Shown piece after piece: positions 41,730-64,000 of a stretch of DNA of 64,000 nt (its first letter is position 1; every line of letters begins with the position of its first letter). The stretch comes from an uncultured Pseudomonadota bacterium (GTDB lineage: Bacteria; Pseudomonadota; Alphaproteobacteria; Rhizobiales; Xanthobacteraceae). The stretch covers positions 109,177 through 173,176 of the forward strand of contig CAVRHC010000007.1 in the NCBI GenBank assembly GCA_963720835.1. Direction: 5' to 3'. The notes under the pieces are model-generated. The model was not told the DNA's origin and made no database searches. It saw nothing but the letters and a program-made list of their open reading frames with translations. A program made the translations under genes and the position numbers.

Positions 41730-41755
41730 GCGGCGTCGCTGCTAACGAGGCCCTG

Positions 41756-44162: not shown

Positions 44163-44184
44163 GGTTTATGGAGACTCTACGAGT

Positions 44185-44739: not shown

Positions 44740-44778
44740 GTTTTTCCTCGTTGGGATACTCGTCCAGGAGTTGCGTGA

Positions 44779-45756: not shown

Positions 45757-45878
45757 GTAGACGCCATCCGAGTTCCGGCGACAGAAGTCGGCGATGTATG
45801 GACACGATGGGTCGCTGTAGAGGCCGCGCGCCAAAGGCTGCGCGCGACCAATCTTCGGTATTGCAGGACGAGTCTCAG

Positions 45879-46910: not shown

Positions 46911-46973
46911 CGTTTTCCTCCCAGAAAGCTTTTTAAATTTTTTCGGGCTCGCCGCAGCGTCTCCGCCACAACA

Positions 46974-46990
46974 GTACCGTACGGTACGGT
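46974..46990. promoter_or_regulatory. candidate TetR operator upstream of the MBL-hydrolase operon
   Basis: GTACCGTACGGTAC is a perfect 14-bp palindrome, extended to TACGGTACGGT, 64-80 nt upstream of the 46910 start. It shares words with the site at 40396-40417. Confidence 0.5.
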
Positions 46991-47474
46991 ATTTTAATCT
47001 TTGGACAAAGGCAAACGGAATAGCTGACACGGCCAAACCGCCAGAAATAGCCTCATACGTGCAAATTTCGGCCGTCCCGACGAGAAGCGGCAAGCTGGGC
47101 GGCGTTCGTGCCAGCAAGAGATCGTGATCGGCCGGTAACGTCCTGCGCGTGCCGCAAATGTATCCGGCTGCCGGTTGATCGAAAATCAAGCAAACCTGTC
47201 GTGGGATTAAAGGTATTTGTAGACTTGTCAGTTGGACGGTCGTCGATCCGCTCCGGTCCCCGAAATCGCTGGAGGCAGAAACTTTTTGCCTTGCAGCCGA
47301 GCGAAAGACAGGATGCATCGATATCGCTCACCATTGAGCAAGCCGGACACATTCATTGCCGTCCGTTGGGCAGGCTGCATCACCAATATGTCCGGAATTG
47401 ATCTACGACAGGGACAACTACCTGCCCATATGCAACCCGCATTGGGTCAGTCCGGTTAGTTTGGATTGATCCTG

Positions 47475-48365
47475 TTAAAAATTTGGCAATGGCAGCCCGG
47501 CCTGCATAGACCCAGCGCGCAGTGTATTAAGTAGCAAACAGGCAATTGTCATCGGGCCTACACCGCCCGGCACCGGCGTGATGGCACCGGCGACTTGCAA
47601 TGCGTCCGCATATGCCACGTCACCGACGATGCGCGGCTTGCCGCCTTCGCCCGGCACGCGGTTAATACCGACATCAATTACCGTCGCTCCGCGCTTGATC
47701 CAGTCGCCGCGCACCATCTCAGGTTTGCCGATAGCAGCGACCAGCAAGTCGGCGCGCCGGCACACTGCCGGCAGATCGTGCGTTTTGGAATGGCAAATGG
47801 TCACCGTCGCGTTCTCGGCTAGCAGCAACTGCGCGACCGGCTTGCCGACGATGTTGGAGCGGCCGATCACCACCGCCTCCATGCCCGCGAGCGACTCATG
47901 AACGGTCTTCGCCAACAGCACGCACCCCAGCGGCGTACACGGCACCAACGCGGGCAATCCGCTGGCGAGACGACCGACGTTGAGCGGATGAAAGCCGTCC
48001 ACGTCCTTGGCGGGATCAATGGCGGCGATCACCTTCTGTGGATCGATCTGCTTGGGAAGCGGCAACTGCACCAGAATGCCACTTACGGAGGTGTCGGCAT
48101 TGAGCGCGCGGATGAGTTCGAGTAATTCGCCTTCGCTGGTGTTCGCCGGCCGCTTGTGGTCGAACGCTCGCATGCCGGCTTCCGCCACCGCCTTTGATTT
48201 AGTGCGCACGTAAACGCTGCTCGCCGGATCCTCGCCGACAAGCACCACGGCGATACCCGGCGTAAGTCCGTTAGCGCTTTTAAGTCGGGCGACCTCGCCG
48301 GCAATTTTTTTGCGCAGCTCCGCTGCGACTGCTTTACCGTCGATGGTAACGGAGGTGATGGTCAT
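47475..48365 (-). CDS. folD: bifunctional methylenetetrahydrofolate dehydrogenase/methenyltetrahydrofolate cyclohydrolase
   Basis: 296 aa: [50 protein letters not shown]. Confidence 0.95.
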
Positions 48366-49165
48366 GTTTTAGTGAGCGCCGGCTAATTGACGATGCAATA
48401 GACACGCGCCTTTTCCATCTTCCACGTGCAGGAGTCGCGGTCGTAGGGTGTAAGTGCGAAGCAGTGTCAATGATTGTGCAACTATCACGACCAAAATAGC
48501 GGTGACTGTCACGTAAGCTTGCACGATTGCTGGCGGCACGGTTGCCGAAAGCTCAGCGAACGGATTTGTGATGAACATGAGAGTCCCCCAATTTCGGGCC
48601 AGTTCTTAATCGTTGTCGAAATAAAAACCGGGACCGAATGGAAGCGACAAATAGCACAAGTAAAAATCTTTAAGCCATTGACTTGAATCTATCGCGCAAT
48701 AGACGGTGCAAAACAAACGACGTCATCGCAAAAAGCGAGTGCCGCCGACAGTGGCGCTTGCCGCATAGGCTCAAACTGAACAGCCCGATTCGGCCGCGTC
48801 TCGAGTCATCACCACCATCGTGGGCGAATTGCTCGAGATTCCCAACAAAGTTGTCGCCTTTCGGGGGGTATATGGCAGCCATCCCGCAACTCGCAGCCTT
48901 CGCAAATAAAGCGTGACAGATTTCGTTGCGTCGCGATGGCAGTCGCAAACTGTGACATCAACTTACGGAGCATGCTCATGTCAGCCTCTCGTTCGTCAGT
49001 TCCATCGAAATATAAATAATTTCAATCCAAGAACATTGTTGGGCTATTGAGGTAAATCAAAATATGCAGACCAGGCAGCAGAGGATTTGCTATAGCGAAA
49101 AAGATCGTTTTGTTCTATTTTCTTCAATAAGTACTGGGCTTTAGGCGCCTCGCCAGAGAACGACC

Positions 49166-49790
49166 ATGGATATCTTCAAGCCGGTGAAAATCGAAGGCGC
49201 GCGCGTCATGCTTGAGCCGTTGTCGCTGCGGCATCTTGATGATCTCGCGGCTGCCGGCGCCGACGGATCCATCTGGCATTGGCTGCCGAGCGCGCACCAT
49301 TTGCCGGGCTCAATGGCCGAATTCATTGAGTCTGCTTTGGCCGCATATGAGCGGCGCTCCGCCCTGCCTTTCGCGACGATCGATCGCGTGTCGAAAAAAG
49401 CTGTTGGCTCGAACTCGCTTCCACCATATCGAAATCGAACATCGACGCCTTGAAATCGGGGTGACCTGGATTGGAACTGCTTTCCAACGGTCATATGTCA
49501 ACACTGAAACTAAGTTCCTGCAGCTTTGGTACTGTTTTGAAATCCTGAATTGTCGACGGGTCGAGTTCAAAGCGGATGTCGACAACAAAAAATCAATCAA
49601 CGCGATATCGCGGCTCGGCGCCACGAAAGAGGGGCTTTTTCGAAAGCATATGCTGTATGCGGACGGTCGAAACCGCGATAATGTTTATTTTTCAATAATT
49701 GACGACGAGTGGCCCGCTATCCAGGCGCAGCTTCAGGCGAAGCTTAGCTACGCAGTCTCCCCTCGCGTCATCGAAGTGAAGGCGGCATGA
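49166..49790 (+). pseudogene. GNAT (RimJ/RimL-like) N-acetyltransferase with a 1-nt frameshift at about 49412
   Basis: ORF 49166-49453 gives the N-terminal part (...ATIDRVSKKAVGS). The +1 frame continues with TRFHHIEIEHRRLEIGVTWIGTAFQRSYVNTE...RVEFKADVDNKKSINAISRLGATKEGLFRKH from 49413. Confidence 0.7.
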
Positions 49791-49803
49791 GCGCCCACGC
49801 GCC

Positions 49804-50694
49804 TCAATCCTTGCTGACACGTTTTGCGTAAGCGTCAATAAAATCAGCGGCAGCTTTGCTTCCTCGAGCAAAAGATTTCATCGCTTCCTCATGGAGCAAA
49901 TTCAACGCTTGCATTTTTATTGCATTCGCTTCGTCGCTCTCGGTGATGTTCTCAGCGTTGCGCGGGCGAGGTAAATTGACTTCAATGACAGAACGAACAC
50001 GCGTTGGAATATTTGACATGATCAAGATGCGATCGGCCAAAAAAATTGCTTCGTCGATGTCTGTCGTGACGAAAAACGTCGTGCGCCTGAATTCGTTATA
50101 GAGGTTTGCGTAGTATTCCTGCATCAGCCGTTTGGTCATGGCATCCAGACCGCGGAACGGCTCGTCCAGGATCATAATCGCCGGTTTGTTAATCATGGAG
50201 CGAGCAAGTTCAGCGCGACGTTGCATGCCTCCGGAAAGCTGCGACGGATACTTTTTACGGAATGCTGCGAGCCCCACCTTCTGCAGCAACGCTTCGGCGA
50301 AATCGCGCATCTCCGGCGTGTCTTCGCCGCGTGCACGCGGCCCGTACATGATGTTGTCGTAAGTGGTCATCCAGGGGAAAAGTGCGGTCTCCTGGAAACA
50401 GACCAAACGATCGACCCCCGGACCTGTTACCGGCTTGTCGTCGAAAATAACCGTCCCGCTATTGGGACGTTCGAAACCCGCCAAAAGCCGTATCAGCGTG
50501 CTTTTGCCGCATCCGGACGGTCCGATCATAACGGTCAATTTGCTGCGTTCGATCGTAAAGCTGCAGTTCTGCACGACATGCTTAGTAAAAACGTCGGTGC
50601 CGTAAGACTTGCTGACGTTCTTGACAACGATTTCGCTGCCGAAGGCGGTAGACGTGCCGGCTTGAGCTGACAAGTTGTGGGTCATTTCCTGCAT
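49804..50694 (-). CDS. ABC transporter ATP-binding protein (NitT/TauT family), second ATPase of the operon
   Basis: Walker A GPSGCGKST, signature LSGGMQRR, Walker B ILDEPF. Confidence 0.9.
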   Translation of the reverse strand: MQEMTHNLSAQAGTSTAFGSEIVVKNVSKSYGTDVFTKHVVQNCSFTIERSKLTVMIGPSGCGKSTLIRLLAGFERPNSGTVIFDDKPVTGPGVDRLVCFQETALFPWMTTYDNIMYGPRARGEDTPEMRDFAEALLQKVGLAAFRKKYPSQLSGGMQRRAELARSMINKPAIMILDEPFRGLDAMTKRLMQEYYANLYNEFRRTTFFVTTDIDEAIFLADRILIMSNIPTRVRSVIEVNLPRPRNAENITESDEANAIKMQALNLLHEEAMKSFARGSKAAADFIDAYAKRVSKD

Positions 50695-50711
50695 ATTTTT
50701 TTCTCGCGTTT

Positions 50712-51560
50712 TTACCCTTCAGCGAGCCATGGAGTCAGAAATTCCCCTAACCTGCGTATGGCGGCGCTCGAAATATAGCCAGCGATGCCGATGCTGATCA
50801 TGCCGGCGACGATTTGGGTATAGGAACCGCCGACGTATGAATTCCAGATGAAGAAGCCGAGGCCGCCGCCTGCCGCTCCGCCCATCGAACCGGCGCTTCC
50901 GCCGCCGGAAATCATTTCCGCCGCGACCACCACCGCCCATGTAATGCCGATGCCGACGGTCGCGCCGACGACGATGGACGGCAAAGTTCCCGGCAGAATA
51001 ATGCGCCGAAAAATGTCCCATGTGGACGAGCCCATAGATCGCGCCGCCTGGAAGTAACGGACATCGATGGCCCGCGCGCCGCCGATCACGTTGATGACGA
51101 TCGTGAAAAATGCTCCGAGGAACGTAACAAAGGCGATTGAGAGCTCCTGCGTTGGCCAAAAAATGATGGCTGCCGGCACCCAGGCGAGGGGAGGTATCGG
51201 GCGCAACACTTCGAAGACGGGAAAAGTGATGCCGTAGAACGTACGGCTGACAGCCATGGCAAGGCCAAGCGGGATACCTATGATCATCGCCGCGATGAAG
51301 CCTTCAAAGACCCGCAAGGTGCTAAGATAGGCGCTTTGCCAAAAGCTGGGCTCTTGAATGAGTTTGAGCATCTCCAACAAGACGGCACTCGGCGCGGGGA
51401 TCTGCGATACCCAGGGAAAGGCAATTCCGAACCACGCCTCCGATCGCGATCCGATTTCCCATAAAATGAAAAATACGATGATGGCGACCACACCGCGCCA
51501 GACTGCCTCATCCGTGATAAGGCTTGCGGCCTTCATAAAGATTGCCTCGCTCCGATTCAT
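50712..51560 (-). CDS. msmH: ABC transporter permease (NitT/TauT family)
   Basis: BPD_transp_1-type permease (six TM-like segments; EAA-like loop AARSMGSSTWDIFRRIILPG). The symbol is assigned only from gene order relative to the published msmEFGH operon. Confidence 0.75.
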   Translation of the reverse strand: MNRSEAIFMKAASLITDEAVWRGVVAIIVFFILWEIGSRSEAWFGIAFPWVSQIPAPSAVLLEMLKLIQEPSFWQSAYLSTLRVFEGFIAAMIIGIPLGLAMAVSRTFYGITFPVFEVLRPIPPLAWVPAAIIFWPTQELSIAFVTFLGAFFTIVINVIGGARAIDVRYFQAARSMGSSTWDIFRRIILPGTLPSIVVGATVGIGITWAVVVAAEMISGGGSAGSMGGAAGGGLGFFIWNSYVGGSYTQIVAGMISIGIAGYISSAAIRRLGEFLTPWLAEG

Positions 51561-51562
51561 GA

Positions 51563-52477
51563 TCAGCGTTCCTTTTCACCGGCGTCGAAGGCCTTGATCG
51601 CTTCCTCATGCACGGCCGCGGATGTTTCCTCCATGAAGGCGCGAAAGCGTTTGGTCGTGAGCACGCTATAGTCGCGAGGATGGGGAATATCGATGTCGAG
51701 TATCTTCTTCGGTCGACACGGTCTTGTCGTCATAATTACCACGCGGTGTCCGAGAAAAATGGCCTCTTCGAGATCATGCGTGATGAAGAAAATCGTGACG
51801 CGATTCTTATAAAAAATCTCAAGCAACGCCTCATGCATGACCGATTTCGTCAGCGAATCGAGTGCGCGATATGGCTCGTCGAGCAATAGGATTTTTGGGT
51901 CGTTCATGAGCGCGCGGACAATCTCGACGCGACGGCGAACGCCAGACGAAATTTCACCAGGATAGCTATCTGCAATGCCACGTAACCCGGCATCGGCCAT
52001 CATGCTGTGTGCTTTTTCATAAGCTTCCGCACGCGACATCGTCCCCTGCATTACCGGCCCGAATGCCACGTTATCGAGGTTAGTCTTCCACGGAAACAAC
52101 GCACCGTTTTGAAAGACCACGATACGGTCGGGACCCGGCTCCGCTTTGAGTTTTCCCGGTCCACACAACATTTCGTCGTCGAGATAAATGCTGCCGGAAC
52201 TGAGACTGTGAAAACCGGCAATGGCATTGAGAAGCGTCGTTTTTCCGCAACCCGAGGGGCCGACGACGACGGTGATCTCCCCGGCTGGAACGTCGAAGGT
52301 GCAATGGTCGACGGCCAAAACACCGGCGCCATGTACGCCGTATGTCTTGACGGCATCGATGATGCGTACGCCGCCTTTGTGCGAATTTGTTGAACGTTCC
52401 CTCTGCGATGGCGCAGAGGGAGCTTCCATTGTTGTTTGCACTATCGTTCTCCCAGCGCCAGCTCTCGGGTCCGCCAC
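51563..52477 (-). CDS. msmG: ABC transporter ATP-binding protein (NitT/TauT family)
   Basis: Walker A GPSGCGKTT, signature ISSGVRRR, Walker B LLDEPY. The start may be ATG 52429 (MEAPSAP). Confidence 0.8.
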   Translation of the reverse strand: MADPRAGAGRTIVQTTMEAPSAPSQRERSTNSHKGGVRIIDAVKTYGVHGAGVLAVDHCTFDVPAGEITVVVGPSGCGKTTLLNAIAGFHSLSSGSIYLDDEMLCGPGKLKAEPGPDRIVVFQNGALFPWKTNLDNVAFGPVMQGTMSRAEAYEKAHSMMADAGLRGIADSYPGEISSGVRRRVEIVRALMNDPKILLLDEPYRALDSLTKSVMHEALLEIFYKNRVTIFFITHDLEEAIFLGHRVVIMTTRPCRPKKILDIDIPHPRDYSVLTTKRFRAFMEETSAAVHEEAIKAFDAGEKER

Positions 52478-53379
52478 TGCATCATATAGTCACCGAGCAG
52501 TCGAATGGCGGCGCTCGTAACGTAGCCGACGATTCCCAACGTCACCATGCCGATAATAATCGTGGGATACCGCACCATGGTGTAAGATGTGTTGATTACG
52601 TAACCCAACCCGTATTGTCCCGATACCATTTCACCGGCGACCAACGAAAACCACGCAACGCCGACTGAAATCTGCAAACCGGTGAAGATAAAGGGCAATG
52701 CTCCCGGCGCGATGATATGCCGAAACACTTGCCAGCGTTTCGCACCGAGACAACTTGCCGCACGGGTATAAGACACATCGATCGATTCGACACCCAACAT
52801 CGTGTTGAGGGCAGTCGCATAGAACGACGCAAGAAACGTCAAAAAGATAACCGGCGTTTCGGATCCACGAAACATGACAATCGCTAGTGGGACCCACGCT
52901 AGTGGCGGTATGGGCCGCAGCAGTTCGAAGACCGGGAAAACGTATTGTTTGAAGCGTGGCGACCAGCCGAGAAACAGCCCGAGCGGTACACCAATTCCGG
53001 TCGCCAGAAAGAAGGCAATCGCGATACGCCGGGTGCTGACCCAGATGTGCAGGTAATATTCCGGTACGAAGATCGACAATCCATAGACGGGATCGCGACT
53101 CAACCACTCTGTAAAGACCTGTGTCGGCCCCGGCATTTCGGCAAAGCGCGGCAGTTTCCACACCTCTACCGAAAAATACCAAAAGCCGAGAAAGCAAGCG
53201 AGGCCGATCAACATCAGATATGGCCGCGGACTTTGCAGCCACAGCGACGTCCGGTGCATTGCCAATGCCCAGGAGGTCATGCTTCGGGCATTGTCGCCAA
53301 TCACATCTTGAGGGGAGTCTATCGTGCGAATGTCGCTCAGTTCAGTTTCGGTCATTGCTGCGCCTTTGTGAGGCTCCAT
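52441..53379 (-). CDS. msmF: ABC transporter permease (NitT/TauT family)
   Basis: Polytopic permease with the EAA-like loop AASCLGAKRWQVFRHIIAPG. The symbol is assigned from gene order only. Confidence 0.75.
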   Translation of the reverse strand: MEPHKGAAMTETELSDIRTIDSPQDVIGDNARSMTSWALAMHRTSLWLQSPRPYLMLIGLACFLGFWYFSVEVWKLPRFAEMPGPTQVFTEWLSRDPVYGLSIFVPEYYLHIWVSTRRIAIAFFLATGIGVPLGLFLGWSPRFKQYVFPVFELLRPIPPLAWVPLAIVMFRGSETPVIFLTFLASFYATALNTMLGVESIDVSYTRAASCLGAKRWQVFRHIIAPGALPFIFTGLQISVGVAWFSLVAGEMVSGQYGLGYVINTSYTMVRYPTIIIGMVTLGIVGYVTSAAIRLLGDYMMQWRTRELALGER

Positions 53380-53423
53380 GCCTTTTTAAGGCATGGAGCC
53401 GCGTTGACGTCGTCGTGCGTACG

Positions 53424-54611
53424 TCACTTGCCGGTGTAAGCGGAGTCCGGCAGCGCTTTAACTTCGCCCACAGGCGCCTTCAAATTGCGGGCTTTCAGAA
53501 TGTCCTCGGTCAGATTCGACATAACCGCCTCGGGACGAATTTCGGCCTTGATGCTCTTGATCTCGAGAAGGAATGTCGAGGCCTTGTGCACAAGGTCCAT
53601 TACCTGCGGCGTGAAAGTATACGGCAACGTGATACGAATATCGGTGCCTCCTTCCGATTTGGGCGTCTGACCATAAGCGGATGCCCACAGCGCCTTTTCC
53701 GGGAAGCCGGTGGTCTGCGATGCCGCCATTTTCGCGACCTCCATCGCATGCTTGGAGTCGGCGAAATATAGTTCGGCATCAAGCTCGGCTTCGAGCCAGC
53801 CCTTCACGACATCTGGGCGCTGCTTAATAAGAGCCTCCGGCATGACCAGGAAGGCGCCATCGTTTTCGTTGACCGATGCACCCGTCGCGACCTTGCGTGC
53901 GAGTTTGTCGTGAACCAGGCGTGAAGCCGTCGGCTCCCAAATAACGGCGGCGTCTAGTTTTTTCGCGCGGAAGCCGCTCGTGATCACTTCGATGCTTTGG
54001 TTTAGATATTCGGCCGGCTTGATGTTGAAGCGCTTGAACACGGCCCGCGCAAAACGATCGGAACAAGCACCCTTCGGCACCGCCACGTGCTTGCCGTCCA
54101 TCCACTTAATTGCTTCTTCCGGCGATTTGAACTTGGGCGCATCGGTGCGAACGAGGAAGTTATTGCACTGATCCTGACCCAGGCCGACAGCCGCCACCAT
54201 TCGGACGTCGCGCACTTCGGCGTGGCTGGTCGATACGATCGCAGGCATGTCACCGACGTAACCAACATCCACTTTGCCGGCGAGCATGCCGTTGACAATG
54301 ATTGCGCCCTGCAAGCCAATCTGGAATTCGACTTTTGACCCCTTCGGGAGATATTTTTCGTAGAATTTCTTGTCGCGCATAACGACGCCCGACCACGATT
54401 CCGTATAGTAGGGCTGATAGCCAATAACCAAGTTGATTGCTTCACCGGGCTTTCCGTAGTCCTTGACTGCCGCTGCGGAAGCCGGCGAAGACGTCATCGC
54501 AAAGACGGCGAACCCGGCAGCCGCAACAGCTAGAGATTTGGCGGCGACTGAAAATCGGTTGACGCCATGCTGACGTAGGCCGCGCGGCTCTTTCCCTGTG
54601 TCCAAGTGCAT
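53424..54611 (-). CDS. msmE: periplasmic substrate-binding protein (NMT1/SsuA/TauA-like) of the sulfonate-type ABC importer
   Basis: Signal peptide (AVAAAGFAVFAMTSSPASAAA) and strong RBS GGGAGGA. It is divergent from the msmA-like gene, as reported for Methylosulfonomonas msmEFGH/msmABCD. Confidence 0.8.
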   Translation of the reverse strand: MHLDTGKEPRGLRQHGVNRFSVAAKSLAVAAAGFAVFAMTSSPASAAAVKDYGKPGEAINLVIGYQPYYTESWSGVVMRDKKFYEKYLPKGSKVEFQIGLQGAIIVNGMLAGKVDVGYVGDMPAIVSTSHAEVRDVRMVAAVGLGQDQCNNFLVRTDAPKFKSPEEAIKWMDGKHVAVPKGACSDRFARAVFKRFNIKPAEYLNQSIEVITSGFRAKKLDAAVIWEPTASRLVHDKLARKVATGASVNENDGAFLVMPEALIKQRPDVVKGWLEAELDAELYFADSKHAMEVAKMAASQTTGFPEKALWASAYGQTPKSEGGTDIRITLPYTFTPQVMDLVHKASTFLLEIKSIKAEIRPEAVMSNLTEDILKARNLKAPVGEVKALPDSAYTGK

Positions 54612-55078
54612 TTTGAATCCTCCCTAGCGTGTTTGGTTTTTATACGAAACTCATCGTCTGATTTTCGTGGAACGTCACGTTTCCTTTCTGGATTGCCCCT
54701 TGGTGTCAATTTGCAGTCTATCGCGGCTGCGAGCTGGTCCACCTATTAGCTTAGCGATTTTCGCCGCGTTGCTTTCCGACAGAATGACAGCACCAATTCT
54801 TAATGAGAAAATTGTTCCTCCTAATAGCCCAATAGAAGACCACTATTACCCGCTGGCTTTGGACCGGTGCGAACGCCGTTCTGGTCAGTTGAACGAAAAA
54901 TAGGCAGGTTTTAAGCGCACTTCCGGGCCCAATGCGGGTCGCTTTGAGCTATTGCTCAATCTATTGATATATAACTATTTTCGATATTCTGTGATCTGGT
55001 GAATTCAGGCTGGGCGCTGATATCATCAGTACAACCATACGAGTCTAATCACACTCGACTTTCGGAGGGACAATCATC

Positions 55079-56329
55079 GTGGCAGCAAAGAATCATCGCG
55101 AATGGGTCGCGGAACCCGGCCTAAAGCCGTCAGAATGGGTCGATAGTCGCATTTATTCCGACCCGGAGATTTTCGAGGAAGAGCTCGAGAAGATCTTTAA
55201 GAAGAGTTGGATTCCAGTTTGTCATGAGTCCGAATTATCGAAGCCCTACGATTTCCGCACGATGTCGATCGCGCGTGAGCCGATCGTCGTCTGCCGCGGA
55301 CCGGACAATCAAGTCCGCGCCTTCCTGAACGTCTGTCCGCATCGGGGCATGATCATCGAGCGTCGACCGTCCGGGAGTTTTCTCGAAGGCCAGCCGTCAG
55401 GAAATCCGAAGCGGATGACCTGCATGTTCCATGCTTGGCAATACGACATGCGCGGCAATTGCGTTTACATCAGCCGCGAAAAGGAAGGTTTCCAAGAGCG
55501 CCTGTGCAAGGAGAACGTCGGTTTGCGGCGCTTGCGCTGTGAAGTGAAATTCGGTGGATTTGTCTGGGTCAGTCTCGAGGACAACCCGTCCGTTTCCCTT
55601 GAAGACTGGGGCGCAGAGGCTTTTGCTTGCCTGCGCAAGACTCTCGATGCTGAGCCGCTTGAGGTGTTTCACTATCACAAGGCGATTGTGAATGCTAACT
55701 ACAAGCTTTGGCACGATACAAACTGTGAATTTTACCACGACTTCATGCACTACCATAATCGCGTCACTGGCTTTAACGACGCTTACTTCGCGCGGAAGAA
55801 CGACGCCTTCGATCATGGCCACATTGTCGTCGGAACGTTTGAAGTGAACTACGAAAACTACGAAGGCGCCGAGAGTCGCGCAGAGCTTTCGTTCCCGTAC
55901 CTGCCGCCGAACCAGTGGTACATGATCGACCTTTTCCCGGGCATGAACTTCAACCTGCGTGGTTCCGCACTTCGGTGCGACATCGTGACGCCTTTAGGTC
56001 CGGATAAGGTGATGATCGAGTTCCGCGGGCTAGGCTTGAAGCGGGACACCGCTGAGGAGCGCGAGACGCGCATCAATCATCACAATTCAATATGGGGCCC
56101 ATTCGGCCGCAATTTGCACGAAGACCTGATTGGCGTTCAGGGGCAGGGCACCACGATGCTCACCGGCTCAGAACCGCGGCATATCCTGCATGGTCGCCAT
56201 GAGAACCAGACGATTTATGACGAAAATGGCATGCGGCACTACTACGATGAGTGGGGTCGCTGGATGAATTGGCTGCCGAGTAACCCCGAGAAGCCGTTCT
56301 CGGAGCGGATGTCGGTCGCCGCGGAATAG
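55079..56329 (+). CDS. msmA: methanesulfonate monooxygenase hydroxylase large subunit (Rieske oxygenase alpha)
   Basis: The Rieske motif is CPH (res 86-88) ... CMFH (res 115-118), with 26 residues between the His and the next Cys. This is the unusual CXH-X26-CXXH spacing reported for MsmA. There is also a mononuclear-iron region NCEFYHDFMHYH. GTG start with GGAGGG RBS. Confidence 0.85.
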   Translation: MAAKNHREWVAEPGLKPSEWVDSRIYSDPEIFEEELEKIFKKSWIPVCHESELSKPYDFRTMSIAREPIVVCRGPDNQVRAFLNVCPHRGMIIERRPSGSFLEGQPSGNPKRMTCMFHAWQYDMRGNCVYISREKEGFQERLCKENVGLRRLRCEVKFGGFVWVSLEDNPSVSLEDWGAEAFACLRKTLDAEPLEVFHYHKAIVNANYKLWHDTNCEFYHDFMHYHNRVTGFNDAYFARKNDAFDHGHIVVGTFEVNYENYEGAESRAELSFPYLPPNQWYMIDLFPGMNFNLRGSALRCDIVTPLGPDKVMIEFRGLGLKRDTAEERETRINHHNSIWGPFGRNLHEDLIGVQGQGTTMLTGSEPRHILHGRHENQTIYDENGMRHYYDEWGRWMNWLPSNPEKPFSERMSVAAE

Positions 56330-56447
56330 GCAGCGGAGGAGAAAATTTGTAAGTCTCGCGCGCGCTTTTGCAGGTCATAGGGGCTGCAATCGCGCGCGCC
56401 AATTCAGCGCCGCATTGCGCCTCAATGCTAAAAAAGGCGATTAGACC

Positions 56448-56930
56448 GTGGAACCTCAGGCTCTAGTTCGTGATGCGATTTATCGATCAACAATTCTGCT
56501 CGACAAGCAGGATTGGAATAGCTGGCTCGACCAGTGCGACGCAGAATTCCAATATGCGATACGCGCCTGGAGCCCCGAAATCAGCAAGGACATGACTTAT
56601 CTCTCATTGGACCGCAATGGTCTTGAAAATTTGGTCAACCTTTTGCCGAAGCACAACACAGATCATTCACCCCTGACGCGGCACACGTCAGTATATACCG
56701 TGGAGGTCGACGATAACGCCAATCGCGCCAATGCGGTCAGTTCGGTGATTGTTTATCAAAATCTTCTGGACGGTATCAATTCGCATATTGATGCCGGCGA
56801 GAGCCGTCTTTTCCTGGTCGGCAAATACATCGACAGCTTTAAGATCGACTCCGGCAAAGCGAAGTTTCTCAGCCGCGAGGTACGAATCGAAAACCGACGA
56901 TTGGACAAGGGTTCGCATTGGCCTATATGA
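56448..56930 (+). CDS. msmB: methanesulfonate monooxygenase hydroxylase small (beta) subunit, NTF2-like
   Basis: 160-aa ring-hydroxylating-beta/SnoaL_4-like protein (DKQDWNSWLDQCDAEFQY). It sits between the alpha subunit and the ferredoxin. A GTG start is forced by an in-frame TAG at 56442. Confidence 0.75.
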   Translation: MEPQALVRDAIYRSTILLDKQDWNSWLDQCDAEFQYAIRAWSPEISKDMTYLSLDRNGLENLVNLLPKHNTDHSPLTRHTSVYTVEVDDNANRANAVSSVIVYQNLLDGINSHIDAGESRLFLVGKYIDSFKIDSGKAKFLSREVRIENRRLDKGSHWPI

Positions 56931-57000
56931 CGAACGAGCCGTTTTTACGATCGGTGCTGGGGTGAGGCGCGGTGCCAAGAACAATACGACGAAGCCAAGA

Positions 57001-57369
57001 ATGACATGGAAACGCATCTGCGAGGCGGGAGACGTTGCTGAGAATTCCGTCAAGAAATTCGACGTCGGCGGGATCCCGATATTGCTGGTGAATTACGGCG
57101 CCGGCTACCGCGCAATTCCCCCTGTTTGCCCGCATATGGAAGAGCCTCTGGACAAATCGGCTGTCGTCGCTAGTTGTGTGCTGACTTGCACCAAGCACCT
57201 GTGGTCTTGGGACATGGCGACGCTCGACATGAAGGGTGAAACGGAAAAGCCCCTATTGACGTATGAAGTCAAACAGGAAAATGGCTCCATCTTCGCAAAT
57301 ATCGAACATGAATTGACTTACGAGTTTGAATCCGAGGACGGCGAAGACGACGACGATTTCTTCAAGTGA
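57001..57369 (+). CDS. msmC: Rieske-type [2Fe-2S] ferredoxin component
   Basis: CPHMEEPL ... CTKHLWSW Rieske motif and a very acidic C-terminus ([13 protein letters not shown]). The start is taken at ATG 57001. Confidence 0.8.
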
Positions 57370-57385
57370 GTCGATTGCCAGTGCC

Positions 57386-58417
57386 ATGAAAATCACGGTC
57401 CAGAGCAAGAGCGGGGACGTGACATTTCAATGCGGTGAAGGCGAGACGATTCTTCATGCCGGACTTCGTCAAGGTTTGCGCCTTCCCTATGAATGCGCCA
57501 CCGGTACCTGTGGAACTTGCCGCGCGCGCGTCATGAACGGCGAGATCGCAGTCCGATGGAAAACTGCTCCGGGTGGCGCGCGCCTTAAGCCTGAAAAAGG
57601 CGATGTGTTGATGTGCCAAACGCGGGCCCGCTCGGACTGCGTGCTCCGGGTGCCGTCTGAGGTAGGCGCTTCATCGATCCCCTGTCCAGCCTCGCGCCGC
57701 GGTGTCATTCGCGGTATTCGCGGCCTAACTCACGACGTTACGCATTTCGATATCGAACTGTCCGAACCAATCAGTTATGAGGCGGGCCAGTTTGTTGTGA
57801 TTGAAGCAAAAGATTTGGAAGGCGGCCGTGCATACTCGATGGTCAATTTCGACCAGGCGACCGATAGAATTGGGCTTGTGCTCAAACGCAAGCCAGGCGG
57901 CGGTTTCAGCAATTGGCTGGGCGACGAACGGGAAAACGTAGAAGTCGAGGTCTTCGGTCCACTTGGACGGGCGGTGTTCCGACCGCAGGAAGAAAAGCAT
58001 ATCATATGCATCGCCGGTGGCTCGGGCATTGCCGGAATGATGTCGATCCTCGCCCATGCCGTTGACCTTGACTACTTCCGCGACCATAAGGGTTCCGTTT
58101 TCTTCGGTGTTCGCACGCTCGCCGACACTTTCTACCTTGATCAGTTGTCCAGTTACGTCGATGCGTCACATGGTAATCTTGACGTAACCGTTGCGCTTTC
58201 CGATGAAGTCGCTGCTGCGGCAATTCATAACGAATTTTCCAAGTTGAAACTCGCGAGCGGTTTCGTTCACGAAGTTGCGATCAGAGCAATGAACGGCAGA
58301 TACGACAACGCGATCGCGTTTGTGGCGGGACCGCCCCCGATGGTTGATGCCACCATCCGCAGCCTGATCGTCGGCGGCATGGCAACAAAAGATATTCGAT
58401 ATGACAAGTTCGGTTGA
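57386..58417 (+). CDS. msmD: ferredoxin-NAD(P)H reductase component (plant-type 2Fe-2S + FNR-like FAD/NAD domains)
   Basis: [13 protein letters not shown] cluster motif, RAYSMVN flavin motif, [12 protein letters not shown] motif. The start is taken at ATG 57386. Confidence 0.8.
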
Positions 58418-59138
58418 CGCACTTTCGACGCTCAAGCCAAAGGCCGCCAATTGGCAACCGATATCATCGGCGGATGATGATGCATTGGCCCGTGCCCGGC
58501 GTGAAACCCTAAATATCGTGCAGTGGCTCGCGCGCATCGCAAACAGTTACGTTATGGCGCCACCACAGGAGCGGACAATACTGACATTTCTGCCTCAGGA
58601 TGTTGCTCTGGTGACGAAAACCTTCGAGGGCAATAAGTCGCTCCAAATGCGACTGCCGACGTTGGAAATGCAATTTCTCGAGCATGGTCGGCCGGTACCG
58701 CACATTTTCAATCCTGAGGAACACTCGCCGGCGAAGGCCGAAGCTTGGTTCTTAGTCGAGCTTCTTCATCGAGGTATCGATCGCGAAAAGTTTTCCAAGG
58801 ATCTGCCTTATGAGATTCCGAATTTGCTGAGCGGTGACGCTGAAGATTACTCGCCAAAATCTTGCAAAACGGGATTGGGGCAATTGACAGTTTGGTTTCA
58901 AAATGCCGCTGTGGCGTTCGCTACGGCGGGTCATGGCGAGACTTTCGAGTGCTCACCACAGACGCTTGATCTGACGGCCGCAAAAAGTGGATTTTCACTG
59001 GGCAGGGATGACAGCGTCGAGCCGTATTTTTACAAAACCGTGCAGGGTAAACAGTCTGTGCTGAAGGCGTCTCAGTTCGCGGGAGAACGAGATCCACTGG
59101 CGATGATCGTGGCTTTTCTCAACGCGCCCGCGAGTTGA
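58401..59138 (+). CDS. hypothetical protein, no family recognised, translationally coupled to msmD
   Basis: 245-aa ORF whose ATG lies 17 nt before the msmD stop. It has no TM segments or signal peptide and no motif I can assign. Confidence 0.5.
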
Positions 59139-60147
59139 CCGCGGAAATCCGCCGTTTTTCCGGAACTTTCGCAGCGTGCCTTTCGGCCGGCTTTTCGGCG
59201 GGAGGCGATTCGTCGTTGACCGCTTGTTCGCCGGCGAGACGTTTGCGCAGCTCACCGGACTTGTTGAGCTGCTGAACGACCGTGACGAATGCCTTGGCCA
59301 TCGGCAATACGATGTCGCCTTCTCCCCAGAACAAGCCAACGTCTTGGCTCGCCACAGGATCGACCAACGCGAGTGCGCGCGTGCCTCGGTGCAGTCCTGG
59401 GGCGTGAGCGAAATGCGACGGTATGATCGTGCAAAGCTCTGTGAATTGAACCTGAAACATGAGATGCAGGATCAATTCCAACTCAACGTGGGCTTCGGGC
59501 GCACATCCAACACTTTTGAAGACTTGATCGACGAAACGGCGTTCGTGCATTGACGGACGCAACATCGCCAGCGGAAGCTCGGCGGCTTCTTTCCATGTGA
59601 TGTTCGTACGATGCCGGAATTCCGGCTTGTCAGGGACAAGCAGACTCAATTGCTCAGTATAAATCGGCAATATGTTCTTGCGGCCGAGTTCTGCCTTGTC
59701 GAGGTAGGTCAGGGCGACATCGAGCGCGAATTCGTTGAGCCCCAGTTTCATCGCGTCGTTACCGATAAATTGTACGTCCACATGCACTGCGGGGTGTTTT
59801 TCTCGAAAAGGCTCAAGCATGGAAGGCAGGACCGGGGACATCGACGGCATGGCGCCCAAACGCAAACGGCCGGTCAGTTCCTTGCGCATCATCTCCACTT
59901 CTTTGCGCATGGCATCGCAGTAAGCCAGCACGCCGCGCGACCAATTCGCAACGCGTTCGCCCTCAGCGGTCAGTCCGTGAAATCGCTGGCCGCGGCCGCG
60001 AAGAAAAATCGGCACACCAAGTTCGAGTTCAAGCTGCTTGATGCCGCTGGACAGGCTAGGCTGAGTGACGTTGCAGCGCTGGGCGGCACGACCAAAGTGT
60101 CGTTCTTCGGTAACGGCGATCAAGTATCGGAATTGGCGAATGAACAT
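59119..60147 (-). CDS. LysR family transcriptional regulator
   Basis: MFIRQFRYLIAVTEERHFGRAAQRCNVTQPSLSSGIKQLE HTH and a LysR substrate-binding domain, with an extra C-terminal tail of about 45 aa. ATG 60147 is preceded by AGGTGA. Confidence 0.9.
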   Translation of the reverse strand: MFIRQFRYLIAVTEERHFGRAAQRCNVTQPSLSSGIKQLELELGVPIFLRGRGQRFHGLTAEGERVANWSRGVLAYCDAMRKEVEMMRKELTGRLRLGAMPSMSPVLPSMLEPFREKHPAVHVDVQFIGNDAMKLGLNEFALDVALTYLDKAELGRKNILPIYTEQLSLLVPDKPEFRHRTNITWKEAAELPLAMLRPSMHERRFVDQVFKSVGCAPEAHVELELILHLMFQVQFTELCTIIPSHFAHAPGLHRGTRALALVDPVASQDVGLFWGEGDIVLPMAKAFVTVVQQLNKSGELRKRLAGEQAVNDESPPAEKPAERHAAKVPEKRRISAVNSRAR

Positions 60148-60278
60148 GACCGTCACCTGCTTATCAGTTTATACGATAGTACTATTCGAAAATAGATACC
60201 ATCAAATGATTTCTATGATTCAACAGATCGTCCTTTTGGTGCATCGCGGTAAATCGAGTTGCGGCGCAGCATTGTTCG

Positions 60279-61061
60279 GTGCGGTCACGAGGTATCGCCG
60301 TGCCGATTTTTGAGTTGGGCTTGATTGCCATCCTAGGCCTCGTTTCCGGTTTGATGATCGGATGCATCGGGATTGGCGGAGTGATCTTGGTGCCTTCGCT
60401 TGTATTCCTCGCGGACGTTCCAATTCACGTCAGCATCCCGGCTGCGATGATGGCCTACATCCTCTCTGGCTTGGTCGCGACTACGGTCTTTGCGCGCAAG
60501 AAATCGATCGAGTGGCCGATGGCGATTTGGTTGTGTTCCGGCGCAATACCAACCGCTTTCATCGGCGCTTGGACGGTTAACGTTTTGAACCCGCGCATTC
60601 TGGAGGTCTGCATCGGATTTCTCACATTGCTGGCTGGGCTGAATGCACTGACGACACAGGCCGGGGGTGGCGCGGCTGCGCGTGCGGTTGTGCCAAAGAC
60701 AACGCTGGGCGTGGTTGGCGCTATCGCCGGATTTCTGTCGTCCCTGAGCGGAACCGGCGGGCCGTTGGTGCTAGTGCCTATCTTGATTACGATGAGTGTG
60801 CCGGTACTGACCGCGGTGGGCTTAAGCCAGGCAATCCAGCTCCCCATCGCTACAGCGGCGACATTTGGCAATGCGTTGTATGGCACGCTCAATTTGGAAC
60901 TTGGTGGTGTGCTTGCTCTTGCTCTGACCTTCGGATCATGGGGGGGAGCGCGACTCGCGCATGTGATGCCACGGACAATTTTGCGAAAAATCGTATCGGT
61001 CGTGCTGGTGGTGGTCGGCTTGTTTATTTTGGGCAACATTCTTTTCCGGCTGATGCGGTGA
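60279..61061 (+). CDS. TauE/SafE (DUF81) family sulfite-exporter-like membrane protein
   Basis: Polytopic protein with two repeated halves and a GIGGVILVPSL-type motif. The start may be GTG 60300 (preceded by GAGG). Confidence 0.8.
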   Translation: MRSRGIAVPIFELGLIAILGLVSGLMIGCIGIGGVILVPSLVFLADVPIHVSIPAAMMAYILSGLVATTVFARKKSIEWPMAIWLCSGAIPTAFIGAWTVNVLNPRILEVCIGFLTLLAGLNALTTQAGGGAAARAVVPKTTLGVVGAIAGFLSSLSGTGGPLVLVPILITMSVPVLTAVGLSQAIQLPIATAATFGNALYGTLNLELGGVLALALTFGSWGGARLAHVMPRTILRKIVSVVLVVVGLFILGNILFRLMR

Positions 61062-61068
61062 GGACAAC

Positions 61069-62073
61069 ATGGCGTTCGATGCCTCTGCCCTGACGCCGGA
61101 TTTCGGCGATCCGGCTGGCGAAGCGGAGGCATGCCGTGCCGATAGCGCACTCTTCGATTTCTCCTTTCTCGAGCGGGCTAGAATTTCAGGAAAAGGCGCG
61201 CTTGACTTTGTGTCGACATTCGCCGGGCGGCCGCTGATGCAAATGCGGCGAAACGAGATTGCTTATGCCGTGCGGGTTGATGTGGCAGGCCGCGCATTGT
61301 CGGATTTGACGATCTGGCGCATCGGCGACGAGACATTTGAAATCATGAGTGGCCGGCATCAAGACATTGCCGATCTGCACGGGTCGGCGGGTGCGGATAC
61401 CTTTGTCGATGACATAACAGAGGAAAGTGTTGTTTTTTCAGTGCAAGGCCCCAATGCGTTGAATTCCCTGCGTAAAATCGGTGACGTCAACGCCATCAAG
61501 CAGTTGCGTTACTTCAACTTTGGAAATGCGTGCTTGGGCGATGTCCCATGCACTATTGGTCGGCTGGGGTATACTGGAGAACCTGGCTTTGAGATCATCG
61601 CGAACAAAGCCAACGCTAAGGATCTTTGGCAGCGTTTAGCCGAAAATGCGCGGCCGGCAGGCTTCATCGCGGCGGATATTCTGCGCATTGAAGCCGGTTT
61701 CGTTTTATTCGCAAACGAATTTCTCTTGCCAGTCTCGCCCGCAGAAGCTGGGCTCGGCAGGTTTCATCTTGACGCAAAGCCCGCAAACACAACGATCAGA
61801 CTCGTCTCATTTCGTGCCGAGGCTGACAATCTAAGTTTCCCCTGGCGTCCGACTTCAAAGCTATATCGTCCCACTGAATTGAATTCGATTGTCGTGACGT
61901 CTGCATGCGACAGCATTGTCGCGGGAAGTATTCTCGGACTTGGATATGTTCCTGATGGCCACGATAATGCTACGCCGTTGCGTGACCCGACCGAGGCATT
62001 TCGCAATATCCGTCCAACGGCAATGCCATTTTACGACACGAAAAAGCATCGGCCGCGTCAACCGTGGACTTGA
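61069..62073 (+). CDS. GcvT-family (aminomethyltransferase-fold) folate-binding protein
   Basis: SFLERARISGKGALDF, GYTGEPGFEI and ILRIEAGF motifs of the GCV_T fold. Confidence 0.8.
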   Translation: MAFDASALTPDFGDPAGEAEACRADSALFDFSFLERARISGKGALDFVSTFAGRPLMQMRRNEIAYAVRVDVAGRALSDLTIWRIGDETFEIMSGRHQDIADLHGSAGADTFVDDITEESVVFSVQGPNALNSLRKIGDVNAIKQLRYFNFGNACLGDVPCTIGRLGYTGEPGFEIIANKANAKDLWQRLAENARPAGFIAADILRIEAGFVLFANEFLLPVSPAEAGLGRFHLDAKPANTTIRLVSFRAEADNLSFPWRPTSKLYRPTELNSIVVTSACDSIVAGSILGLGYVPDGHDNATPLRDPTEAFRNIRPTAMPFYDTKKHRPRQPWT

Positions 62074-62264
62074 AACAAGGCGCCGGAACGTGGCGGTTCA
62101 TGATGATCCGGGCACTTTCATAGCCCTTGGCGAATATACGATAGCCGTTGATTATTTGACTGAAACGCTGACGAAGCGGCCCAATGTGGCCTGGTTTGGG
62201 CTAGCCGGGGATGCTCGGCTGCTTTCCCAAACGATGAATAGGTACAGCAACAAAGGACCGGGAC

Positions 62265-63173
62265 ATGGCCGATAAGCCGGCGAGGAAAAAAGTCACCATC
62301 AACACCCTCAATAGCAAAATGAAAAAGGGTGAACCCATTACTCAGTTGGCTGCGTACGACTATCGTACGGCTGTCGTTGCCGACCGCCTTGGCATGGATA
62401 TTCTTTGTGTCTCTGATACTGGCGGAATGATTTTGTTCGGGCATCAGAGCACGGTCTCGGTAAGTTTCGATGAAGTGATGATGATGGCAAAGGCCATCGA
62501 CCGCGGCTCCAAATACGGCCTGCGGATGGTTGATATGCCGTATTGGAGCTTTCATGTGTCGCCGGAGCAGGCGGTCGCCAACGCCGGTCGCTTTGTGCAC
62601 GAAGCAAATGCCGAAGTGATGAAATGCGAGGGCAACAAGTATCACGCGAAGAATATTGAAGCCATCGTCCGCGCCGGCATTCCGGTGCAAGGGCATATTG
62701 GCATCACGCCGATGCGAATGCCGCAACTTGGGGGGTTCGTCGCGCAAGGCAAGACAGCCAAACGCGCCAAGGAAATGGTGGAAGATGCCAAGGCGATGGT
62801 CGACGCCGGCTGTTTCTCGATCTTATGCGAAGTGACCACTTCAGAGGTTGCCGAGTATCTGGCAGAAACCTTGCCCGTGCCGGTGATCAGTCTCGGTGCA
62901 GGTAATTGCGCGCACGGCGTGCATATTATCTCCTCCGACCTCTTCCATCTCTGGGAAGAGCATGTTCCGCGTCACTCGCGCATCTACACCGACCTCATTC
63001 CAATCATGGAAGATGTCATCACGCGTTACATGAAAGACGTGGTGAATCGAGATTATCCGGCCGCGAAAGAGACGGTTTTCATGGCCCCTGAGGAATCCCT
63101 CGCGTTTGCACAGGAAATGAAATGGGACCGCAAGGTCGACGAATTGCGTTCATCTAGCAAGAAAACCGCTTGA
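62265..63173 (+). CDS. PanB-family 3-methyl-2-oxobutanoate hydroxymethyltransferase homolog
   Basis: SDTGGM, VDMPY, MKCEG and ILCEV align by eye with E. coli PanB Asp45, Asp84, Lys112 and Glu181 contexts. At 302 aa it has a longer C-terminus than I expect for PanB. Confidence 0.75.
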   Translation: MADKPARKKVTINTLNSKMKKGEPITQLAAYDYRTAVVADRLGMDILCVSDTGGMILFGHQSTVSVSFDEVMMMAKAIDRGSKYGLRMVDMPYWSFHVSPEQAVANAGRFVHEANAEVMKCEGNKYHAKNIEAIVRAGIPVQGHIGITPMRMPQLGGFVAQGKTAKRAKEMVEDAKAMVDAGCFSILCEVTTSEVAEYLAETLPVPVISLGAGNCAHGVHIISSDLFHLWEEHVPRHSRIYTDLIPIMEDVITRYMKDVVNRDYPAAKETVFMAPEESLAFAQEMKWDRKVDELRSSSKKTA

Positions 63174-63290
63174 TTCGAGTTATCCGCTTTGGCGGTCACT
63201 GTTGACGGCATCGCTCCTGCCGTAAAATGGTGACCGCTGTTACCCAAATGTCCCCAGGACTCGCGGAACGTTACGCCGCAGGATTTGCCC

Positions 63291-64000
63291 ATGCCCGCCT
63301 CGCAACACCAAACGCCGAAGTCTGATATCGAGATTGCCCAGGCCGCCAAGATGCGGCCGATCATCGAACTCGCCAAGGAGAAGCTCGGTATCGCGGCGAA
63401 GGATCTCGAGCCTTACGGCCACTACAAGGCCAAGGTCTCGATGGATTACATCAAGTCGCTCGAGGGCAAGCCGAACGGCAAGATGATCCTGGTCACCGCG
63501 ATCACGCCGACGCCGGCGGGCGAGGGCAAGACCACAACGACCGTGGGCCTGACCGACGCGCTCAACTACATCGGCAAGAAGGCGATGCTGTGCCTGCGCG
63601 AAGCCTCGCTCGGCCCCTGCTTCGGCGTCAAAGGCGGCGCCGCCGGCGGCGGTTACGCCCAGGTCGTGCCGATGGAAGACATCAACCTGCACTTCACCGG
63701 CGACTTCCACGCCATCACCTCGGCGCACAATCTGCTCGCCGCGCTGATCGACAACCACATCTATTGGGGCAACGCGCTCGGCATCGACAGCCGCCGCGTC
63801 GCCTGGCGCCGCGTGATGGACATGAACGACCGCGCGCTGCGCGAAATCGTCTGCTCGCTCGGCGGCGTCGCCAACGGCTATCCGCGCGAGGCCGGCTTCG
63901 ACATTACCGTTGCTTCCGAGGTCATGGCGATCTTCTGCCTCGCCAAGAATCTCAACGACCTGCGCGAGCGGCTCGGCAACATCATCGTCGCCTATACGCG
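63291..64000 (+). CDS. fhs: formate--tetrahydrofolate ligase, 3' end cut by window edge
   Basis: My own translation from ATG 63291 gives [24 protein letters not shown]...[17 protein letters not shown]...[31 protein letters not shown]. It is open to the end of the window, and is absent from the ORF track because no stop is present. Confidence 0.95.

Follow-up and report, generated by a model that had tools for sequence, protein, structure and literature searches.

An msmABCD-type oxygenase locus at the core of a larger conserved gene cluster in an uncultured Xanthobacteraceae bacterium

Introduction

Does the DNA at positions 55079-58417 of the window, the whole 64-kb stretch analysed here from an uncultured Xanthobacteraceae bacterium, encode a methanesulfonate monooxygenase (MsmABCD)? 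Methanesulfonate arises in the atmosphere as a major oxidation product of dimethylsulfide; the gene used as the marker for its bacterial turnover is that of MsmA, the alpha subunit of the hydroxylase. Proven methanesulfonate growers are strains M2, TR3, P1, P2, Filomicrobium Y and Afipia felis 25E1, and conversion of methanesulfonate to formaldehyde and sulfite is established for the M2 enzyme (PMC4433239). A first-pass annotation of this DNA had recognised an msmABCD operon by the unusual spacing of its Rieske ligands.

We arrive at the same assignment, which is supported by the spacing and also by an identity of 81-84% between the window MsmA and alphaproteobacterial MsmA, synteny, and the accessory genes. 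We put at about 0.88 the probability that positions 55079-58417 encode a complete three-component, four-polypeptide Rieske non-haem-iron oxygenase orthologous to MsmABCD of alphaproteobacterial methylotrophs. The motif, gene content and gene order to be expected of an msmABCD/msmEFGH locus are all present, as is an adjacent gene for a TauE sulfite exporter. Gene content, motifs and orthology, the latter by identity and by synteny, are read here directly, and the conversion of methanesulfonate by the enzyme as well as growth of the source organism on this compound are predictions that follow from them. Taken alone, the locus is an additional example of an already well-described system and adds little. 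Indeed, the assignment is a textbook one, and KEGG-based pipelines already assign the cluster-mates of the window MsmA in the same way.

The msmABCD genes and the Rieske motif of MsmA

The stretch contains four genes on one strand, separated by gaps of 118, 70 and 16 nt, which apparently make up a complete and intact msmABCD copy:

55079..56329, plus strand: msmA, hydroxylase alpha subunit (416 amino acids (aa), 48.6 kDa; Pfam Rieske and Ring_hydroxyl_A)
55334..55432, plus strand: Rieske [2Fe-2S] ligand motif CPH-X26-CMFH, residues 86-118 of MsmA (direct reading; inside the Pfam Rieske domain)
55736..56125, plus strand: span of the predicted mononuclear-iron ligands H220, H224 and D349 of MsmA (alignment to PDB 7q04 and 7vju)
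56448..56930, plus strand: msmB, hydroxylase beta subunit (160 aa, 18.4 kDa; Pfam Ring_hydroxyl_B)
57001..57369, plus strand: msmC, acidic Rieske-type ferredoxin (122 aa, isoelectric point (pI) 4.44, CPH-X17-CTKH; Pfam Rieske and NCBIfam ferredoxin-subunit matches)
57386..58417, plus strand: msmD, NADH-dependent reductase (343 aa; Pfam Fer2, FAD_binding_6 and NAD_binding_1)

The msmA gene starts with GTG, with a GGAGGG Shine-Dalgarno sequence upstream, and in its product the Pfam Rieske domain (residues 43-133, E-value 1.4e-17) is followed by Ring_hydroxyl_A (residues 194-397). Re-reading the open reading frame (ORF) 55079-56329 returned the motif of the first-pass annotation at the same coordinates, CPH at residues 86-88 and CMFH at residues 115-118 (nt 55334-55432), with 26 residues between them (X26). 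In a profile alignment with terephthalate dioxygenase and HcaE, the extra length of this spacer takes the form of a single clean insertion of nine residues, RRPSGSFLE, between the Cys-His pairs.

X26 had been taken as the hallmark of MsmA. A filter-free search of 1.84 billion cluster representatives gave 10,448 relatives, 81 of them with an E-value of at most 1e-30. The spacer is present in 117 of the 120 closest database homologues (at least 68% identical); the other three, among them the evidently truncated P0109 (326 aa), lack the complete motif. Among the representatives of neighbouring families, taken at 50% clustering, 3 of about 60 full-length proteins have X26 and the others have X16-19, except for one X23 and one X12. 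Outside the closest set, the full-length relatives with X26 are solely P0306 (47% identical), P0309 and P0335. Since 117 of the 120 closest homologues have X26 and the next relatives, at most 39% identical to the window MsmA, have X17 or X18, the spacer is, judged from these alignments, specific to a clade, as the literature proposes. The spacer nevertheless occurs in more than one lineage: a second X26 clade, of the Burkholderia type, has another gene order and context, and therefore the spacer alone is no proof of substrate.

In the catalytic domain, alignment to the alpha subunit of terephthalate 1,2-dioxygenase (PDB 7q04 and 7vju) points to H220, H224 and D349, each at least 90% conserved in the MsmA alignment, as the probable 2-His-1-carboxylate iron ligands. 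These two structures are the nearest solved ones and match over the full length with the same two-domain architecture (E-value 5e-60); there was no MsmA structure among the PDB structures searched, the best matches being terephthalate dioxygenase alpha subunits. With alpha3beta3 Rieske oxygenases the window enzyme shares the Rieske ligands, the 2-His-1-carboxylate site and a beta subunit of NTF2-like fold, whereas terephthalate dioxygenase differs by its 17-residue Rieske spacer, its H-x4-H iron motif and its aromatic substrates. NCBIfam has no MsmA-specific model and gave sub-threshold matches only, to its anthranilate, HcaE and GbcA models. We thus rejected anthranilate dioxygenase, a name that some databases give to relatives.

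Downstream of msmA, the beta subunit, the acidic Rieske ferredoxin (pI 4.44) and the reductase with its 2Fe-2S, flavin adenine dinucleotide (FAD) and nicotinamide adenine dinucleotide (NAD) domains come in the A-B-C-D order that had been described for them, as confirmed by their Pfam domains. MsmD carries the plant-type 2Fe-2S motif CX4CX2CX29C, the FAD motif RAYS and the NAD motif GSGIA. The true starts of msmC and msmD are most likely 57001 and 57386, which we prefer to the longest-ORF starts at 56749 and 57326; the ATG at 57386 is supported by an end-to-end match to MmoC/BenC-type reductases. With calculated masses of 13.8 kDa for MsmC and 37.1 kDa for MsmD, the window subunits are all within 2.2 kDa of the values published for the purified enzyme of Methylosulfonomonas methylovora M2 (48, 20, 16 and 38 kDa; PMC4433239).

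Orthology and synteny

The locus of M. methylovora M2 (AF091716; De Marco et al. 1999 via PMC4433239) is similar to that of the window in its A-B-C-D order, its X26 alpha subunit, its acidic Rieske ferredoxin, its 2Fe-2S/FAD/NAD reductase and its divergent msmEFGH genes. The comparison was made by proxy, using Hansschlegelia loci, the published M2 primers, and published gene lengths and guanine-plus-cytosine (GC) values. As the five M2 primers for msmA and msmE fit Hansschlegelia sp. L066 with 6 mismatches in 114 nt (H. beijingensis being the next best), L066 was used to stand for M2. The window proteins differ from those of this proxy to a variable extent, with identities of about 82% for MsmA, 60-70% for the other three subunits (70, 60 and 61% for MsmB, MsmC and MsmD) and 51-61% for MsmE-H; the window msmA also has a GC content of 55%, versus 60% in M2.

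MsmA of the window is 82-83% identical to the Hansschlegelia proteins, 84% to that of Methylobacterium nodulans plasmid pMNOD01, 83% to those of Methylobacterium oxalidis and Methylocella silvestris TVC, and 81% to that of Filomicrobium insigne; the genera compared include proven methanesulfonate degraders. Among themselves, the reference MsmA proteins from Hansschlegelia, Methylobacterium, Filomicrobium and Methylocella share 81-93% identity. The 81-84% found here over the full length approaches the 84-99% published for proven degraders over an amplicon of about 300 aa (PMC4433239). Compared with MsmA of 80 genome loci, the window protein is 81-94% identical, the closest species-level genome being a soil metagenome-assembled genome (MAG; 94%). 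Of the two clades with a long spacer, that of MsmA is the nearer one, and the outcome by which the first-pass annotation would have been refuted, a low identity to MsmA and a closer tie to another long-spacer clade, is not observed: the identity is 81-84% to MsmA versus 50% to the Burkholderia RPE67-type X26 clade, and at most 39% to the X17/18 relatives.

The M2 reverse primer encodes the peptide GRNLHED, which the window MsmA contains unchanged. The protein falls in a cluster of 681 members that the Joint Genome Institute (JGI) labels methanesulfonate monooxygenase large subunit and that NCBI names only 'aromatic ring-hydroxylating dioxygenase subunit alpha'. Synteny points in the same direction as identity. 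In the 80 genome loci, which are anchored on MsmA and on which all synteny counts given here are based, msmB follows msmA in every case (80/80), and msmC and msmD are found in 78 and 76 loci, respectively.

The larger msm cluster

The first-pass annotation had delimited the operon at 55079-58417. While these positions do enclose the core operon, the msm functional unit reaches well past them: with msmABCD as its core, a lower-GC cluster extends over about 13.4 kb, from 49.8 to 63.2 kb. On its left side lies an ATP-binding cassette (ABC) importer:

53424..54611, minus strand: msmE, periplasmic sulfonate-binding protein (NMT1_2; SsuA_fam, 100 bits)
52441..53379, minus strand: msmF, ABC permease (BPD_transp_1, synteny)
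51563..52477, minus strand: msmG, ABC ATPase (ABC_tran, synteny)
50712..51560, minus strand: msmH, second ABC permease (BPD_transp_1, synteny)
49804..50694, minus strand: second ABC ATPase, downstream of msmH (ABC_tran; same place in Filomicrobium Y)

The divergent sulfonate-type importer that had been reported is found again at 49804-54611 on the minus strand, with a binding protein of the SsuA family/NMT1_2 type. The msmEFGH genes together with the second ATPase are divergent in about 50 of the 80 loci. Every locus with msmEFGH has this ATPase gene after msmH. The importer probably consists of five genes, for two distinct permeases and two distinct ATPases besides the binding protein, as against the four genes of the published name. 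MsmE is 77-83% identical to the proteins of close loci, and msmE is in general less conserved than msmA (PMC4433239).

On the regulatory side, the window contains a LysR-family gene and two conserved blocks between msmE and msmA:

59119..60156, minus strand: LysR-family regulator (Pfam HTH_1 and LysR_substrate), convergent with and overlapping ORF 58401-59138
54783..54850, no strand: conserved block of the msmE-msmA intergenic region with ATAGAAGACCACTAT, a LysR-type T-N11-A dyad (MAFFT, 31 intergenic regions)
54950..54990, no strand: second conserved, AT-rich intergenic block, candidate msmA promoter region (MAFFT, 31 intergenic regions)

The dyad would be the site at which the LysR regulator, present in 62 of the 80 loci, binds. 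A scan of 54.4-60.4 kb for sigma-70 promoters and terminators gave no more candidates than shuffled sequence did, and therefore no promoter was called.

Beyond the regulator on the right, and at the left flank of the cluster, lie genes that relate to the two expected products, sulfite and a one-carbon (C1) unit that could be bound to tetrahydrofolate (THF):

60279..61061, plus strand: TauE/SafE-family sulfite exporter (Pfam TauE, 131 bits)
61069..62073, plus strand: GcvT-like folate-binding protein, candidate THF-dependent formaldehyde acceptor (334 aa; Pfam GCV_T)
62265..63173, plus strand: PanB-like hydroxymethyltransferase (302 aa; Pfam Pantoate_transf)
63291..64000, plus strand: 5' part of ftfL, formate-tetrahydrofolate ligase, which runs off the window (motif in the translation)
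47475..48365, minus strand: folD, methylene-THF dehydrogenase/cyclohydrolase, left flank (Pfam THF_DHG_CYH and THF_DHG_CYH_C)

TauE is found in 60 of the 80 loci, the GcvT-like and PanB-like genes in 43 and 45, and folD at the same position in 32. The gene at the right edge, which we take to be ftfL from its sequence motif, has the same position in L001, L028, L084, L102 and L106. The GcvT-like protein is below the cut-offs for GcvT, has NCBIfam matches to the trimethylamine N-oxide (TMAO) demethylase and DmdA models, and in the PDB matches dimethylglycine oxidase and TMAO demethylase in their folate domains; both of these enzymes capture a C1 unit on THF. The PanB-like protein aligns with Mycobacterium tuberculosis PanB (1oy0; E-value 2.6e-42, about 40% identical as read from the printed alignment) and is 85-98% identical across msm loci, a conservation equal to that of MsmA or higher. 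Taken with the flanking of the GcvT-like and PanB-like genes by folD and ftfL, these matches suggest THF-linked handling of the C1 product by the cluster. For this THF module, we found no experimental characterisation in the searchable literature.

Proposed mechanism

The substrate, electron path, iron ligands, regulation and formaldehyde fate proposed below are those that homology with better known systems would predict. Methanesulfonate would be taken up by msmEFGH and the second ATPase, with the LysR regulator exerting control at the dyad conserved in the promoter region between the divergent genes. The electron path is modelled on the homologous class IB/III Rieske oxygenase systems: NADH would reduce the FAD of MsmD, from which electrons would pass to the plant-type 2Fe-2S cluster of the same protein and on to the Rieske ferredoxin MsmC. 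From MsmC they would reach the X26 Rieske cluster of MsmA and finally the mononuclear iron, with H220, H224 and D349 as predicted ligands. There, O2 would be activated and the methyl carbon of methanesulfonate hydroxylated, and the resulting hydroxymethanesulfonate would give formaldehyde and sulfite. TauE would offer sulfite a route out of the cell, and the C1 product would probably be handled via THF by the GcvT-like and PanB-like proteins and the products of the flanking folD and ftfL.

Weighing the alternatives

Several observations weigh against the assignment to methanesulfonate monooxygenase. First, the X26 spacer is insufficient by itself to prove the substrate, given that a second X26 clade exists, and the predicted iron motif of the window MsmA, H-x3-H, is one residue shorter than the usual H-x4-H. 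Second, MsmE shares no more than about 51% identity with the M2-like MsmE of Hansschlegelia and the M2 msmE primers mismatch, and each of the M2-based msmA primers has 5-6 mismatches to the window (55214-55234 and 56104-56125). Finally, the characterised M2 proteins were compared via proxies instead of by direct alignment.

The alternative that survives best is that methanesulfonate is used solely as a sulfur source, formaldehyde being merely detoxified without growth on it for carbon or energy. The annotated parts of the window contain no serine-cycle or ribulose bisphosphate-cycle genes, no sulfite dehydrogenase lies beside the cluster, unlike in Filomicrobium Y and M. nodulans pMNOD01, and TauE suggests export of sulfite and not its energy-yielding oxidation. 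However, the isolates known to have an X26 MsmA were all obtained on methanesulfonate as sole carbon source, the LysR regulator resembles the CynR type more than CysB/Cbl, and folD and ftfL flank the cluster. Moreover, sulfur scavenging from methanesulfonate is normally the task of SsuD/MsuD-type enzymes, which depend on reduced flavin mononucleotide (FMNH2). We regard a role restricted to sulfur supply as unlikely, at roughly one chance in five.

The SsuD/MsuD enzymes also convert a sulfonate to an aldehyde and sulfite and are associated with SsuA-type ABC uptake; they differ by their fold and cofactor (luciferase-like, FMNH2-dependent) and by belonging to a sulfur-starvation regulon. An enzyme of this kind was ruled out for the window cluster, as there is no luciferase-like domain in 49.8-63.2 kb and the oxygenase is of the Rieske type. 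An FMN reductase is encoded at 44185-44739, outside the msm cluster.

It is considerably less probable that the enzyme belongs to the MsmA clade but acts physiologically on another compound (ethanesulfonate, or another short sulfonate or C1-sulfur compound), with methanesulfonate at most a side substrate. The modest identity of MsmE to the M2-like protein is relevant here, because MsmE is expected to set the specificity of uptake; the substrate has been tested in a handful of isolates only, and the location of the related Burkholderia X26 clade beside lactaldehyde dehydrogenase and PrpE genes hints at varied substrates. Nonetheless, the 81-84% identity of MsmA is to orthologues of genera with proven degraders, the C1-specific neighbours (GcvT-like, PanB-like, folD, ftfL) fit a one-carbon product, and Filomicrobium Y, a proven degrader, has the same accessory genes.

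That the cluster is a horizontally acquired, non-functional remnant is hardly credible: although its GC is about 0.54, as compared with 0.60-0.66 over the first 46 kb, a GNAT gene at its left edge is split over two reading frames and msm clusters occur on plasmids elsewhere, the reading frames are intact in 16/16 cluster genes, the cluster ligands and catalytic residues are conserved, and dozens of related genomes retain this architecture, with protein identities of 75-98% for most genes (lower for ORF245, 45-74%, and for the GcvT-like protein, 50-77%), which indicates purifying selection.

A possible fifth msm gene and a possible wider regulon

Beyond the methanesulfonate monooxygenase itself, the cluster offers leads on how the oxygenase is assembled or regulated, and on how cells cope with the joint production of formaldehyde and sulfite. 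These leads are the THF-linked genes and the ORF that directly follows msmD:

58401..59138, plus strand: conserved msm-linked protein without family (ORF245; 245 aa; start overlaps the msmD stop by 17 nt)

ORF245 has no Pfam or NCBIfam match, and none of its 502 homologues is functionally named. An alignment of 38 members has 44 invariant positions, including H101, E114, E120, H123, D146 and C155. The AlphaFold (AF2) model, a confident one with a predicted local distance difference test score (pLDDT) of 89 and a predicted template-modelling score (pTM) of 0.86, has two alpha+beta repeats, and a Foldseek search of this model against the PDB gave noise only (polo-box; best E-value 0.08, TM about 0.2). 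The gene is present in 56 of the 80 loci, including those of Hansschlegelia, Methylobacterium and Microvirga, where it is on the opposite strand beside LysR; in pMNOD01, a homologue lies 4 kb upstream of msmA (41% identity, E-value 5e-48). When 80 metagenome loci were anchored on ORF245, msmD was the upstream neighbour in all 74 with sequence there (74/74), the remaining 6 contigs beginning at or within 55 nt of ORF245.

ORF245 may be a fifth, translationally coupled msm gene. Its product would be a cytoplasmic protein of some 27 kDa whose fold is not represented in the PDB, and its invariant residues include His, Glu, Asp and Cys. It could be an assembly, protection or effector factor of the oxygenase, or a partner of the adjacent LysR. 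Because the M2 enzyme, in purified form, is described as functioning with its four polypeptides (PMC4433239), ORF245 is more likely to be accessory, protective or regulatory than catalytic. The searchable literature yielded no experimental characterisation of ORF245. Tentatively, and with the odds somewhat against it, we propose that the methanesulfonate regulon of Alphaproteobacteria extends beyond msmABCD/msmEFGH to the ORF245 gene and a dedicated THF module. In such a module, the GcvT-like protein may capture nascent formaldehyde as methylene-THF, which the PanB-like protein may then use; if this is true, toxic free formaldehyde would never be released.

Comparison with related clusters

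The cluster of 'Candidatus Filomicrobium marinum' strain Y (KM879220; PMC4433239 Table 1) shares with the window LysR, TauE/SafE, the GcvT-like and PanB-like genes, the extra ABC ATPase after msmH, msmHGFE and msmABCD. It differs in that its LysR-TauE-GcvT-PanB block lies beyond the transporter, whereas that of the window comes after msmD, and in that it has a SoxCD sulfite dehydrogenase, of which there is none in the window cluster. The 245-aa ORF is absent from the published Filomicrobium Y table, but it could lie just outside that 20.3-kb segment. On M. nodulans pMNOD01, msmABCD-TauE occurs with a molybdopterin oxidoreductase and a cytochrome c on the plasmid.

The cluster on plasmid p3 of Burkholderia sp. 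RPE67, which goes under the name 'methanesulfonate monooxygenase' and belongs to the Beta/Gamma MsmA group, resembles the window by its X26 spacer, its alpha, beta, ferredoxin and reductase genes and a nearby TauE-like membrane protein. It differs by an alpha identity of 50%, an A-B-D-C order and a major facilitator superfamily (MFS) transporter in place of msmEFGH, and it has no ORF245, GcvT-like or PanB-like gene within 12 kb. This cluster (L162, 11998-17391) adjoins genes for lactaldehyde dehydrogenase, PrpE and a sigma-54 regulator. The substrate of RPE67-type oxygenases may be other than methanesulfonate.

Distribution and detection

The genomes closest to the window are soil Xanthobacteraceae/Pseudolabrys-like MAGs, and dozens of species-level genomes of this large, mostly uncultured soil group carry an MsmA with 86-94% identity to that of the window. 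Each M2 msmA primer has 1-6 mismatches in the 25 loci, out of the 80 related ones, that it fits best. They probably fail to amplify the window msmA and under-detect the msmA of the soil Xanthobacteraceae-like group. The potential of soils for methanesulfonate degradation is possibly under-counted, because the classical M2 primers probably miss this group and NCBI-style labels say only 'aromatic ring-hydroxylating dioxygenase'.

Genomic context

The GC content is about 0.54 at 48-63 kb (48000-63200) and rises again to 0.63-0.67 at ftfL. Over the first 30 kb, where the GC is 0.60-0.66, the genes are ordinary chromosomal ones (cytochrome c maturation, GlnE, sensor kinases). The 64-kb window has no tRNA gene, and among the annotated ORFs no integrase or repeat boundary was seen next to the cluster. 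As a compositional remark only, the low-GC block is compatible with an acquired cluster or genomic island. The plasmid-borne msm clusters are those of M. nodulans and Burkholderia RPE67.

The low-GC block has at its left edge an AT-rich non-coding region of about 800 bp (48366-49165), followed by the split GNAT acetyltransferase gene (49166-49790, plus strand), whose frameshift near 49430-49450 makes it either a pseudogene or the product of a sequencing error. Further to the left, positions 30274-37352 (plus strand) contain genes for a membrane-bound complex similar to formate hydrogenlyase, group 4 [NiFe]-hydrogenase or Mrp-type antiporter modules, including two Proton_antipo_M proteins, an NADHdh-like protein and a fused 30-kDa/49-kDa large-subunit-like protein (612 aa). 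Finally, positions 38183-47318 encode a flavin monooxygenase-like protein of the acyl-CoA-dehydrogenase type, two proteins with an extradiol-dioxygenase fold, a class II aldolase, an NADPH-dependent FMN reductase and two proteins with a metallo-beta-lactamase fold.

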